Positions 3,320 to 23,495 of a stretch of DNA of 64,000 nt are shown here, in pieces. Source of the DNA: a virus; the IMG/VR virus record IMGVR_UViG_3300027749_000044; one strand, given 5' to 3'. The position numbers and the translations under genes are program-made. The notes under the pieces were generated by a model, which ran no database searches, was not told where the DNA came from, and was given only the letters and a program-made list of their open reading frames with translations. Within the stretch, counting starts at the first letter, position 1; every line of letters begins with the position of its first letter.

Positions 3320-4614
3320 ATGACTGATAACGGTGTAATTTATGATTATTTTATTTGGGACCATGAAAAACAAACATATAAGTTTCCATTAGATAATAAT
3401 CCAGATTGGGTTGCCATTCGAGGAGATAAAGTTGTATTTCTAAATAAAAATGGATATGATTCCGAAAGAGAACATGCCGCCAGAGTCTTTGAAGAAGGTC
3501 AAATATTAACTGTAGACACCGTGCGTATTGGTATGTCGAAATCTTATTATAAATTCAAAAACCTCCAATATGAATATAATACCGTAATGTTTGAGAAATT
3601 AACATGAACTCTTTACTGAAGGAATTAAAAAAAGATGAGTAATACAAATATTAATCATGTATTTACTCAAGTAGAAAATATTATCAAAAAAAATCCAAAC
3701 TTGTATGATCGAATTAGAAATAACTGGATAGATTATTCAAGTCCACAAAAATATAAAGGATATTGCGCTTGTTGCGGAGCTCCTAGAATGGAAGATGACA
3801 CACAAGAACATGATTTTGAATGTATATGGTTTGAAGAGATTGAATAGAAGATGAAAAAATTAAAATTTTATAATTTGTCATCGATATTACTTTTGGCTAT
3901 GATCGAATATATATTATTGGGATGTATCATTATTACTCCTTATGCCGGCTCAATATTCTGGCCAATGTTTTTGTTGCTTCCTCCTGAATTGGTATTATTT
4001 GTCATTGTTTATTTGACAATTCTTGATTTTATTCATACGGAACTATAAATAGTTATTTTGGAGAAGCGCATGAATGATACTAATACCAAACAAATTTTAG
4101 ATTTATTGGCGTTGATTGAAGCCAAAAATGAAGAAAATCAAAAACAATTAGATTCACTTCAAAGCCAACTATGGTCAATATTAAACAGACTTAATGTTTT
4201 GGAATCAACAAATAATTTATCTTATCCGATTCCATATTACAAATATGCATTGCCTAATGGTCCTCAAGTTCTGCCGGTGGACACAAAGTGGGAACCAAGG
4301 TGGTTAACTATAACCATGCCTCATACCATGAGAAATTATACAATAGGCGAAGGAATTTCAACTACACCATATCTTGATAATTCCGGTCCACATTCAATTT
4401 AATGACTGATTATTCTATAACTTTTGTTTCAAATAATAATCCTGAAGCAAAAATTTCAGGAAAAATTTCTGACAACGGAGAGTTACCTATACAATTGGAT
4501 CAATTAGTTAATTATTTCCGAAATAATGGAATTGCAGTGAAGGCGATTGGCGTTTCGGATTGGACTTCATTGGAAATTTACATCGAAGACGATTCTTATT
4601 ATTATACACGATAG
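3320..4614 (+). other. five small hypothetical CDSs (3320-3607, 3635-3847, 3851-4048, 4058-4402, 4402-4614)
   Basis: co-oriented, tightly packed ORFs; no recognisable motifs. Confidence 0.5.
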
Positions 4615-4678: not shown

Positions 4679-6526
4679 ATGGATAAATCACAAGAAATTT
4701 TAAGTTCTATTACCGGGTTCATGAAGTATTCAAAATTCATTCCTGAATTAGGCCGCCGGGAGAACTGGGAAGAACTTGTTACTAGAAATAAAAATATGCA
4801 CATTAAAAAGTTTCCAGAATTACAAAACGAAATTGAAACGGCATATGAATTCGTATATAATAAAAAAATCCTTCCTTCGATGCGGTCTTTGCAGTTTGCC
4901 GGCAAACCAATCGAATTAAACGAAACACGGTTATATAATTGTTGTTTTTTGCCTGTTGATAATTACGTTGCTTTCAGCGAAATTATGTTCCTTTTGCTTT
5001 CAGGAACAGGCGTCGGGTATTCAGTACAAAGTCACCATGTCGAAAAGCTACCTTCTATCACAAAGCCAACCAAAAAGAAAAGGTATCTCGTAGGAGATTC
5101 TATCGAAGGTTGGGCCGATGCAGTCAAGATGTTGATGAAAGCATATCTTGCCGGCAAGCCATTGCCTGTTTTTGATTTTAATGACGTTCGACCAAAAGGA
5201 TCACATTTGATTACTGCCGGCGGAAAAGCACCGGGTCCAGAACCACTTAAGGATTGCCTTCATAATATTCAAAAAATTCTAGACAGAAAAGAAAACGGCG
5301 AACAATTAACTACATTGGATGTTCATGACATTAATTGTTATATTGCCGATTCTGTTTTGTCTGGTGGTATTCGTAGATCCGCAATGATCGCTCTATTCGA
5401 TATCGATGACGAAGAAATGCTTACATGCAAGTTTGGCAATTGGTGGGAACAAAATCCACAGCGAGGTCGAGCGAACAATTCTGCCGTAATCGTTCGTCAT
5501 ATGGTCGACGAAGATGTGTTCTTTGATCTTTGGAAGAAAATCGAATTGTCTGGATCAGGCGAACCTGGATTCTTCTTTACTAATGATGCCGATTGGGGAT
5601 TAAATCCTTGTGCTGAAATTTCTCTTCGTCCATTCCAATTTTGTAATCTTTGTACAATCAATGCAGGCGATGTTGAATCACAAGAAGACTTTAATGCACG
5701 GGCCAAGGCCGCCGCATTTATTGGAACTCTACAGGCTTCATATACCAACTTCCATTATCTTCGTGATATTTGGAAAAGAACTACCGAAAAAGAAGCACTT
5801 ATTGGAATTTCAATGACTGGCATCGCATCTGGAACAGTATTGAATTTGAATATGAAAGAAGCTGCTCATGTTGTTAAAGAAGAAAATGCAAGAATTGCCG
5901 AAATTATCGGAATTAAACCAGCTGCCAGAACTACAACTGTTAAACCAGAAGGCACGGCTTCATGTATTCTCGGTACCTCATCTGGAATTCACGCCTGGCA
6001 CAATGACCATTACATCCGTAGAATTAGAGTCGGTAAAGACGAGTCAATTTATCGTTACCTTGCCGACAACCATCCAGAACTTATCGAAGATGAATACTTC
6101 AAGCCTAATCAACAAGCAGTCATATCGATTCCTCAGAAGTCACCCGCTGGCGCAATCACGCGATCTGAATCTGCAATTGACCTATTGAATCGTGTATCCA
6201 AAGTATACAAAGAATGGATTTCACCTGGACACAGACGTGGTGTAAATAAAAATAACGTCTCGACTACTGTTACTATCAAAGCTAACGAATGGGAAGAAGT
6301 CGGCCAATGGATGTGGAAAAATAGGAATTCATTTACTGCTTTGTCGGTTCTTCCTCATTTTGATCATACGTACGTCCAAGCTCCATTTGAAGATTGTTCC
6401 GAAGAACAATTTAATGCATTCTATGAACAATTGCATGAAATTAATTTGGATAACGTTGTTGAATTTGAAGACAACACCACATTACGTGACGAAGTTGCAT
6501 GTGCCGCAGGGGGATGTGAAATATGA
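4679..6526 (+). CDS. nrdJ: class II (B12-dependent) ribonucleotide reductase
   Basis: PSMRSLQF, YNC, NPCAEI, KPEGT, C-terminal CAAGGCEI; no adjacent beta subunit. Confidence 0.9.
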   Translation: MDKSQEILSSITGFMKYSKFIPELGRRENWEELVTRNKNMHIKKFPELQNEIETAYEFVYNKKILPSMRSLQFAGKPIELNETRLYNCCFLPVDNYVAFSEIMFLLLSGTGVGYSVQSHHVEKLPSITKPTKKKRYLVGDSIEGWADAVKMLMKAYLAGKPLPVFDFNDVRPKGSHLITAGGKAPGPEPLKDCLHNIQKILDRKENGEQLTTLDVHDINCYIADSVLSGGIRRSAMIALFDIDDEEMLTCKFGNWWEQNPQRGRANNSAVIVRHMVDEDVFFDLWKKIELSGSGEPGFFFTNDADWGLNPCAEISLRPFQFCNLCTINAGDVESQEDFNARAKAAAFIGTLQASYTNFHYLRDIWKRTTEKEALIGISMTGIASGTVLNLNMKEAAHVVKEENARIAEIIGIKPAARTTTVKPEGTASCILGTSSGIHAWHNDHYIRRIRVGKDESIYRYLADNHPELIEDEYFKPNQQAVISIPQKSPAGAITRSESAIDLLNRVSKVYKEWISPGHRRGVNKNNVSTTVTIKANEWEEVGQWMWKNRNSFTALSVLPHFDHTYVQAPFEDCSEEQFNAFYEQLHEINLDNVVEFEDNTTLRDEVACAAGGCEI

Positions 6527-19455: not shown

Positions 19456-19689
19456 ATGGAAATAAAGATCAAGTCGGCTGATACATTCTATGACGACATT
19501 GAGGACTTGGTTTGGCAGCATGACATCAATTATATTGATGCTGTTGTACTATACTGTGAAATTAACAATCTGGAAATCGAAAGTGTAGTATCTCTCGTCC
19601 GAAAAAATGAAAATCTAAAATCAAAAATTTCATTGGATGCAGAAGTACTACACTTTCTTCCTAAGGTTCAACGTCTACCAATTGAATGA
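19456..19689 (+). CDS. 33: late transcription co-activator gp33
   Basis: YIDAVVLYCE...LKSKI...A..LHFL; precedes gp59. Confidence 0.85.
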   Translation: MEIKIKSADTFYDDIEDLVWQHDINYIDAVVLYCEINNLEIESVVSLVRKNENLKSKISLDAEVLHFLPKVQRLPIE

Positions 19690-20279
19690 CCCCCTATGAA
19701 TCTTATGTAATGTATCTTGCGCTCAAACGGCATTTTACGTCGGAATCTTATGATTTTATCAAATATAATGGAAAAATTCCTGTCTCGCCTGCCGCATTTG
19801 ACGCAAGAAAAGACAAATATCAATTTCAAAAGCTTTCTAAAAAAGAAGACGTCAAAAACTTTCTTGTCGCGAATTTTGTGGAGACTGGTCCTAATATTTG
19901 GGTTGGAGACCTTGTATCTAATAGCCGAAGTGATCATATATATAATGTATGGTTGGGCAGACAGCAATCTTTGACCAGAACATTTAAAACCGATCTTGAA
20001 AAATTGAAATCCAATTTTGATGAAAATTTCAAACCAACGGAAACTTCAAGTCATCCTTATTTGTTAAAATTGTTTTTGTCCAAATCTATTTCGATTGAAA
20101 CACTGATTATTTTGAATGAACTGGTTGCCTTTTTCCCTGCATGGTGTAAGATACTAAAAGATGATCCGATATGGGCAAATGTATATTTACTATGTAACAA
20201 ATATAAACCGTTCATTAAATTTGATAAACAAAAATTTAAAGAATTGGCCATAAAAACAATTAATGATAATAAGGAATAA
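19686..20279 (+). CDS. 59: helicase loader gp59
   Basis: YLALKRHF...YDFIKYNGK, ISIETLIIL, KYKPF. Confidence 0.9.
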   Translation: MTPYESYVMYLALKRHFTSESYDFIKYNGKIPVSPAAFDARKDKYQFQKLSKKEDVKNFLVANFVETGPNIWVGDLVSNSRSDHIYNVWLGRQQSLTRTFKTDLEKLKSNFDENFKPTETSSHPYLLKLFLSKSISIETLIILNELVAFFPAWCKILKDDPIWANVYLLCNKYKPFIKFDKQKFKELAIKTINDNKE

Positions 20280-20281
20280 TA

Positions 20282-20866
20282 ATGGTAAAATTGAATATTA
20301 TCCCACCTGGTGGTTCCGCTCTTCCTTCGCATTTAGGTGGGCATGAAAATGAAACACACCTAGACGAAGGTGCTCTAAATTATATTATCGAAAAATTTGG
20401 CATCAAGTCAATGATCGATGTAGGATGTGGACCTGCCGGAATGGTAGAATTGGCAAGGTCAAAAGGCTTGGAAGTCTTGGGCGTCGATGGAGACTTTATT
20501 GTCGATCGGGCCGTGTCAGACATTGTAATCCATGATTATCAGGTGGCTCCATATAAACCAGAAAAGAATTATGACCTTGCTTGGTCCGTTGAATTTGTTG
20601 AGCACATCGAAGCCAGATACATTCAAAATTTCGTTACAACTTTTCAGTCATGTAAATATGTCATTATGACACATGCGCTTCCTGGTCAACCTGGACATCA
20701 TCATGTGAATTGTCAGCCTATTGAATATTGGGTAGCGGTCATGCAGGCATTTGGATTCGAAGTTGATGTAGAATCGACAAATGAAATCCGAGAAGCCTCA
20801 ACAATGAAAGAACGTTATATCCGACAACAGTCATTGTTCTTGAAGAATGTAAATTATACAGAATAA
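20282..20866 (+). CDS. class I SAM-dependent methyltransferase
   Basis: IDVGCG, GVDG, EFVEHI, GHHHVNCQ. Confidence 0.85.
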   Translation: MVKLNIIPPGGSALPSHLGGHENETHLDEGALNYIIEKFGIKSMIDVGCGPAGMVELARSKGLEVLGVDGDFIVDRAVSDIVIHDYQVAPYKPEKNYDLAWSVEFVEHIEARYIQNFVTTFQSCKYVIMTHALPGQPGHHHVNCQPIEYWVAVMQAFGFEVDVESTNEIREASTMKERYIRQQSLFLKNVNYTE

Positions 20867-20909
20867 TTCGACTAAATAAAACAGTCAACATAACATAAGG
20901 ATAGTGACT

Positions 20910-21137
20910 ATGAAACTCTTTAAAACTTTGGCTTTGGTTGCTGGACTATTTACTGCCACCTTTGCAATGAATGCTACTACAGTTAATGCCGCTACTGTTT
21001 ATAATTATAACAATGGCCTGTATTACGGTAATATTTGTCAAACGCCTGCCGGATGGCAAGTCGTTCCATGGCAACTCGTCGGTGGATCGTGTTGGTCGCC
21101 TGCTTGGGGCATGTGGGGATATATCGCAAACTATTAA
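20910..21137 (+). CDS. small secreted Cys/Trp/Gly-rich protein
   Basis: signal peptide ending VNA; two Cys; late promoter at about 20872. Confidence 0.6.
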   Translation: MKLFKTLALVAGLFTATFAMNATTVNAATVYNYNNGLYYGNICQTPAGWQVVPWQLVGGSCWSPAWGMWGYIANY

Positions 21138-21157
21138 CTTGATTTTTTAAATGATGG

Positions 21158-21235
21158 TATAAATAAACATGCTGATGCTCCTTGCTAGCTATTAGAGTGA
21201 CTGGGCACCCAACCGCGAGTCACATTATATTTATA
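21158..21235. ncRNA. two-hairpin structured motif, copy 2 (no endonuclease gene)
   Basis: bounded by TATAAATA and TATTTATA; covaries with copy 1. Confidence 0.6.
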
Positions 21236-21328
21236 GTCCTGTAGTTTAGTGGTAAAACACCTGGCTTATACCCAGCATCGTCTCCAGATTAGAGAGCGTC
21301 GTTGGTTCGAATCCAACCGGGACTACCA
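21235..21328 (+). tRNA. tRNA-Ile(TAT) with long variable arm
   Basis: AGTCCTG/CGGGACT acceptor, CT-TAT-AC loop, ~24-nt variable region, canonical T-arm, A73-CCA. Confidence 0.8.
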
Positions 21329-21343
21329 ACATACCAAATATTA

Positions 21344-21418
21344 GGCCCTGTAGCTCAATGTTAGAGCAAACAATTCTAAACTGTTAGGTTGTGGGTTCAA
21401 GTCCCACCGGGGTCGCCA
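21344..21418 (+). tRNA. amber suppressor tRNA (anticodon CUA)
   Basis: cloverleaf; TT-CTA-AA loop with anticodon at 21376-21378; G73-CCA. Confidence 0.8.
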
Positions 21419-21440
21419 ATACTATATAATGGAGAATCAC

Positions 21441-21593
21441 ATGGAACACCCAGAAAATATTTTAGAGCCGAATGAATTGACAGAAGAAGATTTTACCGTT
21501 GTTGATGACTGGACAAAACAATATCTTCTTATGGCATATAATGCTATTCTAGAACAAGATTTAACCCAATTTGAGGATGATTATAATGCATAG
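21441..21593 (+). CDS. 50-aa acidic protein ending in TAG (not in ORF track)
   Basis: GGAG SD; MEHPENILEPNEL... Confidence 0.6.
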   Translation: MEHPENILEPNELTEEDFTVVDDWTKQYLLMAYNAILEQDLTQFEDDYNA

Positions 21594-21666
21594 GTAGATT
21601 TATTATCAAACAGGACCTCCGTAATATTCATTTGAGGTCACAATAGGTGACCACATACACCTCATT
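21586..21666 (+). promoter_or_regulatory. candidate leader peptide MHR*IYYQTGPP* with alternative hairpins
   Basis: GAGG SD; in-frame TAG 21595-21597; TAA 21622-21624; GACCTC/GAGGTC versus GGTCAC/GTGACC. Confidence 0.6.
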
Positions 21667-21694
21667 TAAATTATTACAATTACGGAAAAACACA

Positions 21695-22396
21695 ATGAAA
21701 AATTTTAGAACTGCATTCGCCAAACTTGCCCATGAAAAGAAAAATACTGCATGGGACCACATTTGCCTTTGTGTACTGCGCGCCATGGTGGCCAAAAGTA
21801 ACAAAGACAAATATGAAATTGCGACCGCCCAATTAATGCGGGCATTTAGTTTAAACCGACGGCTACACGAATACGATTACCAAGGCATTTATAATGCTCT
21901 GTTGTATCGACATTTTCATAAAATGACTGAGCCGCAATGGGAAATAATGAAAACAAAGAGTCTTTGGTTTCCATACGATCAATTCGACACGTACGATGAA
22001 TTTGTATTATATCGCGAATTGATGGAGAAAATCAAGGAGTCCGTATGTAATACGGGTACTTTTCCAGACAAGGAATACGCCTTTATTTTTGTCAGAAAGG
22101 ATCTCAGTCCAGAACAAATCATTGTACAATCAAACCATGCATCCATTGAATTGGGGCATCGACTTGGTGAAACTGGGTCTAGCATTAGTAATCTTCATAT
22201 TGCTCTTATTGGTGTGGATAATCTATCTGCCCTTGAAGATGTTGGTGAATTGCTTAGAAAAAATAACTTTGATTACACTTTCTTTTTAGAACCAGATCTA
22301 AACAATGAAATGACCGCGATTGCTTCTTATCCTATTAAAAATAGTCAAAAGAGGTTTCTTCGGAACTACGATAAACTATCATTTGCCAACCTATAA
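21695..22396 (+). CDS. protein with C-terminal peptidyl-tRNA hydrolase 2-like domain
   Basis: IFVRKDLS.EQ..VQSNHA and FLEPDLNNEMTAIA motifs; unknown ~125-aa N-terminal domain. Confidence 0.75.
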   Translation: MKNFRTAFAKLAHEKKNTAWDHICLCVLRAMVAKSNKDKYEIATAQLMRAFSLNRRLHEYDYQGIYNALLYRHFHKMTEPQWEIMKTKSLWFPYDQFDTYDEFVLYRELMEKIKESVCNTGTFPDKEYAFIFVRKDLSPEQIIVQSNHASIELGHRLGETGSSISNLHIALIGVDNLSALEDVGELLRKNNFDYTFFLEPDLNNEMTAIASYPIKNSQKRFLRNYDKLSFANL

Positions 22397-22415
22397 GGCT
22401 TGTGATATACTAAAG

Positions 22416-22494
22416 TTTAGGCAGCCTAGCATCTCGGATAAGATGCACCGTACATGTCGGAGAAACCAGGTTCGACTCCTGGGGCTTGCCTAAA
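22416..22494 (+). ncRNA. tRNA-like RNA
   Basis: perfect T-arm CCAGG-TTCGACT-CCTGG, 6-bp D-like stem, 3-bp anticodon-like stem, long closing stem; TTGCCA-17-TATACT promoter just upstream. Confidence 0.7.
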
Positions 22495-22562
22495 TACCAT
22501 ATATTATGAATACAGTGGATAAATCGCATATAGCAACATACAAACATACAAGGAAATAAAAC

Positions 22563-23495
22563 ATGGTAGATTTTGCCTCACTAAAAAAGAACCGTCAGTC
22601 ATCACTAGAGAAGCTAACGGCAGAATTGAATAAAATGAGTTCGCCGGCGAATGGCGCCGATGATACTCGGTTTTGGCAACCTACAGCCGATAAGGCTGGT
22701 AACGGTTCAGCTACAATCCGATTCCTACCCGCTCCCGGATCAGAAGATGTCCCATTTGTTCGACTATTCGACCATGCATTCAAGGGTCCAACAGGCAAGT
22801 GGTATATTGAAAAGTCATTGACAACTATTGGTCAAAACGATCCGGTCAGTGAATATAATAGTAAGCTCTGGAATATGTCAGATGACGATAAGTCTCCTGA
22901 GCGCGAACAAGTACGCAGACAAAAGCGTCGCTTGTATTATGTTTCCAACATTTATGTCGTAAAAGATTCTGCTCATCCTGAAAATGAAGGCAAGGTCTTC
23001 CTATTCAAGTATGGCAAGAAGATTTTCGACAAGCTAAATGATCTAATGAATCCATCGTTCGAGGATGAAACTCCAGTAAATCCATACGATCTTTGGGAAG
23101 GCGCAAATTTCCGTCTCAAGATTCGTCAAGTTGATAATTATCGTAACTACGATAAGTCAGACTTCGCGGATGTGGCTCCTTTGTTGGATGACGACGAGGA
23201 ACTAGAAAGAATTTGGAAGTCAGAACATTCACTTCAAGCATTTTTGCAACCAAGTGAATTTAAGCCTTATGCGGATCTCAAGAAGAGACTGCACGAAGTC
23301 CTTGCCTTAGAAGAAGAAGATGATCTACCTGCGCGTCGATCTTCAACAAAAGCCAAGAAAGTGGAGGTTGATGACGAGGACGATATCCCTTTTGATGCAA
23401 CTCCAAAGCGTAAGGCCCCAAAAAAGGCCGAAGCCGAGGAGACAGAAGAAGAAGATTTCATGGAATATTTTAAGAATTTAACAAAGGAAGATTAA
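22563..23495 (+). CDS. 32: single-stranded DNA-binding protein gp32
   Basis: DDTRFWQP, IRFLPAP, GKWYIE, GKVFLFKYGKKIF, acidic tail. Confidence 0.95.
   Translation: MVDFASLKKNRQSSLEKLTAELNKMSSPANGADDTRFWQPTADKAGNGSATIRFLPAPGSEDVPFVRLFDHAFKGPTGKWYIEKSLTTIGQNDPVSEYNSKLWNMSDDDKSPEREQVRRQKRRLYYVSNIYVVKDSAHPENEGKVFLFKYGKKIFDKLNDLMNPSFEDETPVNPYDLWEGANFRLKIRQVDNYRNYDKSDFADVAPLLDDDEELERIWKSEHSLQAFLQPSEFKPYADLKKRLHEVLALEEEDDLPARRSSTKAKKVEVDDEDDIPFDATPKRKAPKKAEAEETEEEDFMEYFKNLTKED

Follow-up and report, generated by a model that had tools for sequence, protein, structure and literature searches.

A putative stop-gated leader linking a phage suppressor tRNA to a Pth2-like gene

Arrest peptides of the RAPP/RGPP type (ApdA, ApdP, ApcA, SecM with its RAG-P motif, and Streptomyces leaders; PMC12992588, PMC10951233, PMC7897499) are encoded by short upstream open reading frames (ORFs) with an (R)(A/G)PP motif, and the arrested ribosome sits over one arm of a structure in which the start of the next gene is concealed. 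RGPP is the most robust arrest core reported and is not relieved by EF-P (PMC12992588). The known members sense protein export or membrane insertion and involve no recoding. In the 64,000-nucleotide (nt) stretch of virus record IMGVR_UViG_3300027749_000044 analysed here (the window), a short leader upstream of a gene for a Pth2-fold protein follows a tRNA gene with the anticodon CUA (positions 21344 to 22494). By comparison with the described systems, this leader would be an arrest or stall leader of the known type that masks a Shine-Dalgarno (SD) sequence, with a new input, readthrough by a cognate suppressor tRNA. The arrest site lies behind one or two cognate stops, the regulated gene encodes a Pth2-fold protein, the setting is a phage, and the core in the window is Thr-Gly-Pro-Pro-stop, which lacks the Arg of the known cores.

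A Pro-Pro-UAA end is shared with the YbeL-PP model system, in which C-terminal Pro-Pro interferes with termination and peptidyl-prolyl-tRNA is retained on the ribosome (PMC3834316). The YbeL-PP stall results in A-site mRNA cleavage and ssrA tagging and not in regulation, whereas the stall site in the window lies exactly on an arm complementary to the SD sequence (anti-SD arm). In the trpL and pheL attenuators, the in-frame UGA of prfB and TnaC, the progress of the leader ribosome likewise reports on a decoding component and sets downstream expression. These natural attenuators sense sense-codon tRNAs, or RF2 via frameshifting, whereas the locus described here would act by SD unmasking in translation and has a dedicated phage tRNA. 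Engineered switches with UAG in the leader, whose output needs an orthogonal suppressor, are described only as synthetic (PMC6412442); the arrangement here is apparently natural. Recoded phages using code 15 or 4 also carry CUA or UCA tRNAs (bioRxiv 10.1101/2021.08.26.457843, PMC9523058), but the genome considered here is not recoded. No natural stop-gated arrest leader, and no link between a Pth2-like gene and a suppressor tRNA, was found described in searches of full-text papers.

Translation of the Pth2-fold gene is rather likely to depend on readthrough of the leader stop by the phage's own suppressor tRNA, in a module of which the window would hold a reduced member. The anatomy of the module, its conservation, the match between stop and anticodon, the co-variation of the hairpin arms and the Pth2 fold were computed directly. 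A preliminary description of the same stretch had listed the CUA tRNA, an acidic ORF, a GAGG, the leader, its Gly-Pro-Pro-stop (GPP-stop) end and the gene, all of which lie where it had placed them. It had also proposed that only ribosomes that read through the UAG reach the Pro-Pro site and thereby control the Pth2-like gene; gene linkage, the stop/anticodon match, synonymous codon use at GPP, the co-varying hairpin and ORFs of cultured phages that open with a stop codon all lend support to this proposal. The features of the locus are as follows.

21344-21418, plus strand: amber-suppressor-type tRNA, anticodon CUA (ARAGORN; Rfam RF00005, 62.2 bits against a gathering score of 29)
21441-21593, plus strand: acidic ORF of 50 amino acids ending in TAG
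21573-21576, plus strand: GAGG, the likely SD sequence of the leader mini-ORF (from sequence; invariant in relatives)
21586-21624, plus strand: leader mini-ORF, Met-His-Arg, TAG (21595-97), then eight sense codons ending in Gly-Pro-Pro (21613-21) and TAA (21622-24)
21618-21625, plus strand: 5' arm of the SD-sequestering helix, overlapping the Pro codons and TAA (minimum free energy [MFE] and centroid folds; duplex of -8.5 kcal/mol)
21636-21652, plus strand: local hairpin of 6 bp with a 5-nt loop, inside the loop of the long-range helix and mostly within a 14-nt insert found in the window only
21679-21686, plus strand: 3' arm of the helix, containing the GGA SD sequence (21684-86) of the Pth2-like gene
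21695-22396, plus strand: Pth2-like gene, 233 amino acids, two domains

The CUA tRNA has a canonical cloverleaf, a short variable loop, G as discriminator and an encoded CCA, and it is a putative amber suppressor decoding UAG. The leader ATG is located 168 nt downstream of it and 9 nt downstream of the GAGG, and the leader stop, TAG, is cognate to the CUA anticodon. The core of the leader is Thr-Gly-Pro-Pro (21610-21), immediately followed by the stop. In relatives, alignment indicates that the acidic ORF reads in frame into the leader TAG. A 2-nt deletion in the window shifts the frame of the acidic ORF, so that its own TAG (21591-93), which is out of the leader frame, ends 1 nt before the leader TAG; the mini-ORF is unaffected. 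The window leader is a minimal form of the conserved module, with one TAG, TGPP in place of an Arg-containing core and an immediate TAA.

Ribosomes would start on the leader at ATG 21586 and, in relatives, would also arrive from the acidic ORF. At the UAG (21595-97), release factor 1 and the CUA tRNA would compete. Termination there would release the ribosome approximately 20 nt before the hairpin, leaving the helix 21618-25:21679-86 closed and the SD sequence hidden. Readthrough would instead allow eight more codons to be translated and bring the ribosome onto Pro-Pro-UAA, a context known to slow termination; the footprint of the stalled ribosome would then cover the 5' arm, free the SD sequence and permit translation of the Pth2-like gene. 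Since Thr replaces Arg and the stop directly follows Pro-Pro, any pause in the window should be a termination stall. Most relatives would follow the same logic with two cognate stops and an Arg-Gly-Pro-Pro core causing elongation arrest. Suppression, pausing and SD unmasking are steps that we infer from the comparison of sequences. The preliminary description had also invoked a minigene with a rare Arg codon (AGG) and drop-off of peptidyl-tRNA; that idea fails, as the codon is not conserved and is replaced by Pro or Ala in relatives.

Relatives of the two-domain Pth2-fold protein are encoded at about 30 distinct phage loci (numbered here L001 and so on) and are 25-72% identical to it; a suppressor tRNA adjoins the gene at nearly all of these loci. 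Several loci are near-duplicates; distinct leaders were counted, but the loci share ancestry and so look like more independent cases than they are. In the close relatives, L001-L006 and L008, at 71-72% protein identity, the genes are arranged in the same order and a CUA tRNA is again present. L001- and L006-type leaders contain TAG followed by eight codons ending in Pro-Pro-TAA, and the close relatives read Pro-Val-Pro-Pro at this end. The TAG, the eight-codon length and the Pro-Pro-TAA decamer, which forms the anti-SD, are unchanged among the window, L001-type and L006-type lineages, while the surrounding sequence has diverged. In the L001-L005 lineage, a different CUA tRNA, 70 nt long and of odd shape, has taken the place of the CUA tRNA of the window and L006 type (L001:3600-3740), and the 3' half of the old CUA tRNA persists as a remnant directly downstream of the replacement. 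Retention of the CUA anticodon despite the exchange of the tRNA gene argues for selection on function.

The distant relatives (25-40% protein identity) are from viral and metagenome contigs. Most of the viral and metagenomic loci carry a suppressor tRNA, in most cases with the anticodon CUA, at most 2.5 kb from the gene, and a transfer-messenger RNA (tmRNA) gene lies directly 3' of the gene in several. Their leaders, about 60 nt upstream, open with Met and one to eight residues up to a first stop. Four or five residues (often x-Pro-Asp-Thr) separate this stop from a second one of the same type, and the 5 to 14 residues that follow end in Arg-Gly-Pro-Pro or a closely similar sequence; cores that are exactly RGPP or RAPP occur, at a fixed distance from the gene. 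The post-TAG peptide of the window (Ile-Tyr-Tyr ... Gly-Pro-Pro) aligns to the segment after the second stop of these two-stop leaders. In-frame stops with (R)GPP are found 58-68 nt upstream of the start codon in about 20 distinct loci, and the distance from the Gly codon to the start codon is 58-73 nt in relatives and 82 nt in the window, the greater spacing being due to the 14-nt insert. The subtype with one stop and a PP-stop end also occurs in L033, the next closest relative, and in L041, L052, L059, L064 and L009. The survey of regions upstream of phage Pth2-like genes that the preliminary description had suggested thus shows in-frame stops, (R)GPP or PP-stop ends and cognate suppressor tRNAs to be conserved across loci.

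The type of leader stop follows the anticodon of the neighbouring tRNA. Every locus with a CUA tRNA and a recognisable leader uses TAG, and both loci with a UCA tRNA (L039 and L056) have TGA at both leader stops; no mismatched stop was seen. The Gly-Pro-Pro codons differ synonymously between loci, which indicates that the post-stop frame is under coding constraint, unlike a pure RNA motif. This constraint and the agreement of stop and anticodon lend indirect support to decoding of UAG by the tRNA. When 395 kb was searched in six frames, the strict two-stop pattern occurred 29 times, 27 of them at the leader site, and the pattern of a stop, 3 to 14 codons, xPP and a stop occurred 21 times, with 17 at the site upstream of the Pth2-like gene. 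By this comparison across loci, the leader is real and beyond chance expectation.

When the window, L001 and L006 were folded separately, all three paired the Pro-Pro-TAA nucleotides over long range with the SD region of the gene. This conserved helix (21618-25:21679-86), which covers the SD sequence, was not among the pairings named in the preliminary description. For the free RNA of the window, the pairing probability of the SD nucleotides is 0.75-0.89. It is 0.5-0.74 when a ribosome masks the TAG and at most 0.08, except for one nucleotide at 0.41, when a ribosome masks Pro-Pro/TAA (conventional footprint of -12 to +15 in this test, and from the Gly codon to +18 across loci). The window thus shows the geometry of RAPP/RGPP-type leaders, with the stall site placed to open a structure masking the ribosome-binding site just upstream of the gene. 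In the comparison across loci, 18 of the 20 distinct ones have their SD core paired with nucleotides under the footprint of the stalled ribosome (P ≥ 0.65, compared with 0.01-0.49 for shuffled-arm controls), and the same hairpin was confirmed in the one-stop loci L033, L041, L052 and L064.

No consensus structure emerged from RNAalifold when 16 hairpin regions were aligned with MAFFT, because the arms vary in sequence and length. A subset of seven sequences yielded nine pairs, three of them with compensatory change, and a covariance model built from this subset recovered close relatives only and gave no formal covariation statistic. Same-locus and different-locus arm pairs were therefore compared, using 24 nt from the first Pro codon against the SD region and 20,000 permutations. 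The mean duplex energy was -16.5 kcal/mol for arms of the same locus and -8.9 kcal/mol for arms of other loci, and none of the 20,000 permutations was as good. The arms of the hairpin differ in sequence among loci yet remain complementary and co-vary.

Three cultured phages, Arash, GAP32 and ME3, appear to reach the same dependence on readthrough by a different route, without a hairpin. In them, Met-x(1-2)-TAG opens the short, single-domain Pth2-like ORF itself, and a CUA tRNA is located near it in Arash and ME3. Because the ORFs open in this way, the deposited annotations start the Pth2-like ORF late or split it. In Salmonella phage Arash (L013, OQ632216.1) the ORF is at 2490-2824 and the tRNA at 3810-3884; the latter is annotated as tRNA-Phe at 3810-3881 and is called CUA by ARAGORN. 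Acinetobacter phage ME3 (L077) has the tRNA at 1498-1571 and the ORF at about 2000-2318, and in Cronobacter phage GAP32 (L076) the ORF is at about 1990-2345. All three would be tractable for studies of amber-gated expression.

The product of the downstream gene consists of two domains, and the AlphaFold2 model has a mean predicted local distance difference test (pLDDT) score of 90.4.

21695-22060, plus strand: N-terminal helical domain, residues 1-122
22064-22396, plus strand: C-terminal Pth2-fold domain, residues 124-233 and stop

Among 1.84 billion representatives searched, 600 were matched as relatives (E ≤ 0.001), including many full-length proteins with both domains. A profile of 60 relatives matches a peptidyl-tRNA hydrolase in PDB over the C-terminal domain (E = 1.6e-4), and 7 of the 60 individually match PF01981 (E ≤ 0.01). 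In Foldseek searches against PDB, the best 11 matches are all archaeal or human Pth2, followed by Atu0240, with E values down to 5e-6; VIA-align superposes the model on 1wn2 with Z = 14.3 and a root-mean-square deviation of 2.1 Å over 105 residues, which places it in the Pth2 alpha/beta fold. Gln145, His148, Glu199 and Thr207 do not vary, and the same holds for Asp201 in a 13-sequence set and, with few exceptions, in the 60-sequence set; all five align near Pth2 motifs. With the PTH2 family (PF01981; archaeal Pth2 and human PTRH2/Bit1) the phage protein has in common the fold, the sequence Val-Gln-x-x-His and, at the Asp-motif position, an acidic residue, but identity is 9-19% and the 120-residue helical N-terminal domain is additional. 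No convincing fold match was found for the N-terminal domain (best Z about 5; Atlas template-modeling scores of at most 0.5 to helical repeats). "Pth2-like" is the correct term for the C-terminal domain at the level of the modeled fold. The "rescue enzyme" of the preliminary description is not supported beyond this fold-level inference.

The protein may hydrolyse peptidyl- or aminoacyl-tRNA. One role would be the clearance of peptidyl-tRNAs or ribosomes that readthrough has left stranded, in keeping with the tmRNA genes found nearby in relatives; alternatively, its substrate may be the charged suppressor tRNA, with hydrolysis acting as feedback. A more speculative extension, advanced only tentatively, is that the module is a natural "suppression meter": the leader would gauge the ratio of suppressor-tRNA activity to release-factor activity (approximately squared with two stops) and the Pth2-fold enzyme would provide feedback, its N-terminal domain directing it either to the suppressor tRNA, whose deacylation would be homeostatic, or to the peptidyl-tRNAs and ribosomes that readthrough leaves stranded. 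If true, orphan suppressor tRNAs in phages with the standard code would acquire a defined target and a control circuit. Arrest peptides would gain a new input, stop readthrough set by a tRNA of the same module, and the module would tie readthrough to components resembling rescue factors, namely, the Pth2-fold protein and, in relatives, tmRNA. It would be a natural counterpart of engineered UAG-in-leader switches and, being compact (about 110 nt plus the tRNA), could serve as a sensor of suppression efficiency. The window adds a minimal form with one UAG and a Pro-Pro-stop end without Arg.

Several observations weigh against dependence on readthrough and arrest. Arg, on which RAPP/RGPP-type arrest critically depends, is missing from the window leader, which has a single in-frame TAG, compared with two in most relatives. 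No helix in the set is weaker than that of the window (-10.5 kcal/mol, compared with -9.2 kcal/mol for non-cognate partners), the leader region as a whole does not fold significantly more stably than shuffled sequence (z = -1.6), and the SD sequence of the Pth2-like gene is weak, consisting of GGA only. The discriminator and acceptor bases differ across the suppressor tRNAs of the family, and the amino acid cannot be assigned from them. The window protein has no Pfam match at E ≤ 0.1 and does not reach the gathering score of PF01981; alignment does not confirm the Pth2 catalytic residues, and one aligned Lys position is Gln in the family. Given the weakest helix and the GGA-only SD sequence, function in the window is rated lower than function of the class.

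The window copy could accordingly be a decayed relic, in which the module was inherited but the leader has lost its switching role. Translation of the Pth2-like gene would then be low and constitutive, or due to simple coupling, irrespective of suppressor activity. Loss of the arrest-core Arg, the single in-frame TAG, the frameshifted acidic ORF, a cognate helix barely better than non-cognate ones, the weak SD sequence and the degenerate state of the neighbouring tRNA-like gene would all be expected of such decay. Against it, the TAG, the eight-codon length, Pro-Pro-TAA and the anti-SD decamer are kept in three diverged lineages, the CUA tRNA is intact and its replacement in L001 is again CUA. 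The one-stop, PP-stop form recurs with the same hairpin in other lineages, and the masking test still predicts release of the SD sequence in the window. Decay of the window copy is thus judged unlikely, if still the strongest of the competing explanations.

Less probable again is an element that functions as RNA only, with the TAG as a plain ORF stop, the post-TAG stretch as an anti-SD arm opened by coupling or by a trans factor, and the tRNA as a bystander. The decamer over Pro-Pro-TAA is invariant and complementary to the SD region, and an anti-SD of the CCUCC type coincides with the Pro-Pro codons in many loci, as such an element would require. L022-like loci, however, retain Gly-Pro-Pro using codons other than CCUCC, and the residues preceding GPP are conserved as amino acids across loci. 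Nor would an RNA-only element account for a stop type that tracks the tRNA anticodon or for Met-x-TAG gating in cultured phages that have no hairpin at all.

Phage suppressor tRNAs are normally taken as a sign of a reassigned code, and genome-wide recoding, in which the tRNA decodes TAG as sense in phage genes (as in code 15) and the leader is incidental, is their usual explanation (bioRxiv 10.1101/2021.08.26.457843; PMC13037316). The source record is a complete virus genome of 151,248 bp with direct terminal repeats, from a lake-water phage with T4-like gene content. With the standard code (table 11), 201 non-overlapping ORFs cover 91.9% of the 151-kb genome, and 24 of the 201 end in TAG. Reading TAG as sense raises coverage to 92.8% and leaves the ORF count at 201, so that coding density is not something regained only with TAG as sense; gp32, gp59 and the Pth2-like gene are intact without it, and no release-factor gene (RF-1 domain) was found in the genome. 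A check at the level of the window likewise spoke against recoding, which is therefore very improbable. As the genome uses the standard code, the leader is the only evident cognate target of the CUA tRNA found in it, and a regulatory leader as target offers an explanation for orphan suppressor tRNAs in genomes of this kind.

Equally remote is a flip of the terminator/antiterminator type, as first proposed for this leader, between pairing of the Gly-Pro-Pro hexamer with 21634-39 and the pairings 21636-52 and 21633-37/21660-64: the complementarities exist as named (21614-19/21634-39, -8.3 kcal/mol; 21636-41/21647-52, -8.1 kcal/mol; 21633-37/21660-64, -5.3 kcal/mol) and one terminator-like site occurs at 21645-62, but the 3' partners fall within or beside the 14-nt insert, which is absent from L001, L006 and L008, the MFE fold contains only the small 21636-52 hairpin as a passenger within the loop of the long-range helix, and one terminator-like site compares with 1.2 expected from shuffles.

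The module lies between two T4-like replication genes, with baseplate genes nearby.

19686-20279: gp59 helicase loader
22563-23495: gp32

From gp59 to gp32 the order is a methyltransferase, a small secreted-looking ORF, a UAU tRNA, the CUA tRNA, the acidic ORF, the leader, the 233-amino-acid gene and a tRNA-like element. The small ORF (20904-21137, plus strand; 77 amino acids) has a signal-peptide-like N-terminus and a C-terminal part rich in Trp, Gly and Cys; it has no match in Pfam or PHROG and is conserved upstream of the tRNA in L006 and L008. A TATAAATA motif, the T4 late-promoter consensus, is present at 21160-21175 (plus strand), approximately 60 nt 5' of the tRNA pair, and a conserved TATATAAT motif lies directly 5' of the acidic ORF, at about 21424-31. 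Promoter and terminator scans of the region gave counts not above those of shuffles, and a DNA search of the phage collection found similarity at the level of tRNAs only.

The anticodon-UAU tRNA (Ile, AUA-reading; 21235-21328, plus strand; 61.6 bits against Rfam tRNA) ends 15 nt upstream of the CUA tRNA and is absent in L001 and L006. Its length of 94 nt is due to an extra arm of approximately 20 nt in the variable region, which is unusual for tRNA-Ile. An Rfam search of 20800-22800 at E ≤ 1 found the two tRNAs only, and no family for the leader or the tRNA-like element.

22420-22490, plus strand: tRNA-like element, a degenerate gene of the tRNA-Ile(GAU) type (cloverleaf-like fold, z = -3.8; alignment to relatives)

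The tRNA-like RNA that the preliminary description had placed after the Pth2-like gene is recovered as this element. Its counterpart in relatives (L001:4710-4785; L006 about 4710-4785) is called tRNA-Ile(GAU) by ARAGORN in L001. In the window, the anticodon loop has lost 4 nt, and the element is called by neither ARAGORN nor Rfam. Every copy shows a bulged U in an 8-on-7 acceptor stem, a stem extension to approximately 12 bp and no CCA; in L001, one A-U stem pair has become G-C. The end of the Pth2-like gene overlaps a promoter-like site (22383-22411) whose -10 element is TG-extended and which lies 5' of the tRNA-like element.

No tmRNA scored above threshold in the phage's own genome. Phage tmRNA genes adjoin the Pth2-like gene in L016, L017, L021, L036, L038, L039, L045 and L053, usually directly downstream, and the tag peptides that they encode end in Leu-Ala-Ala.

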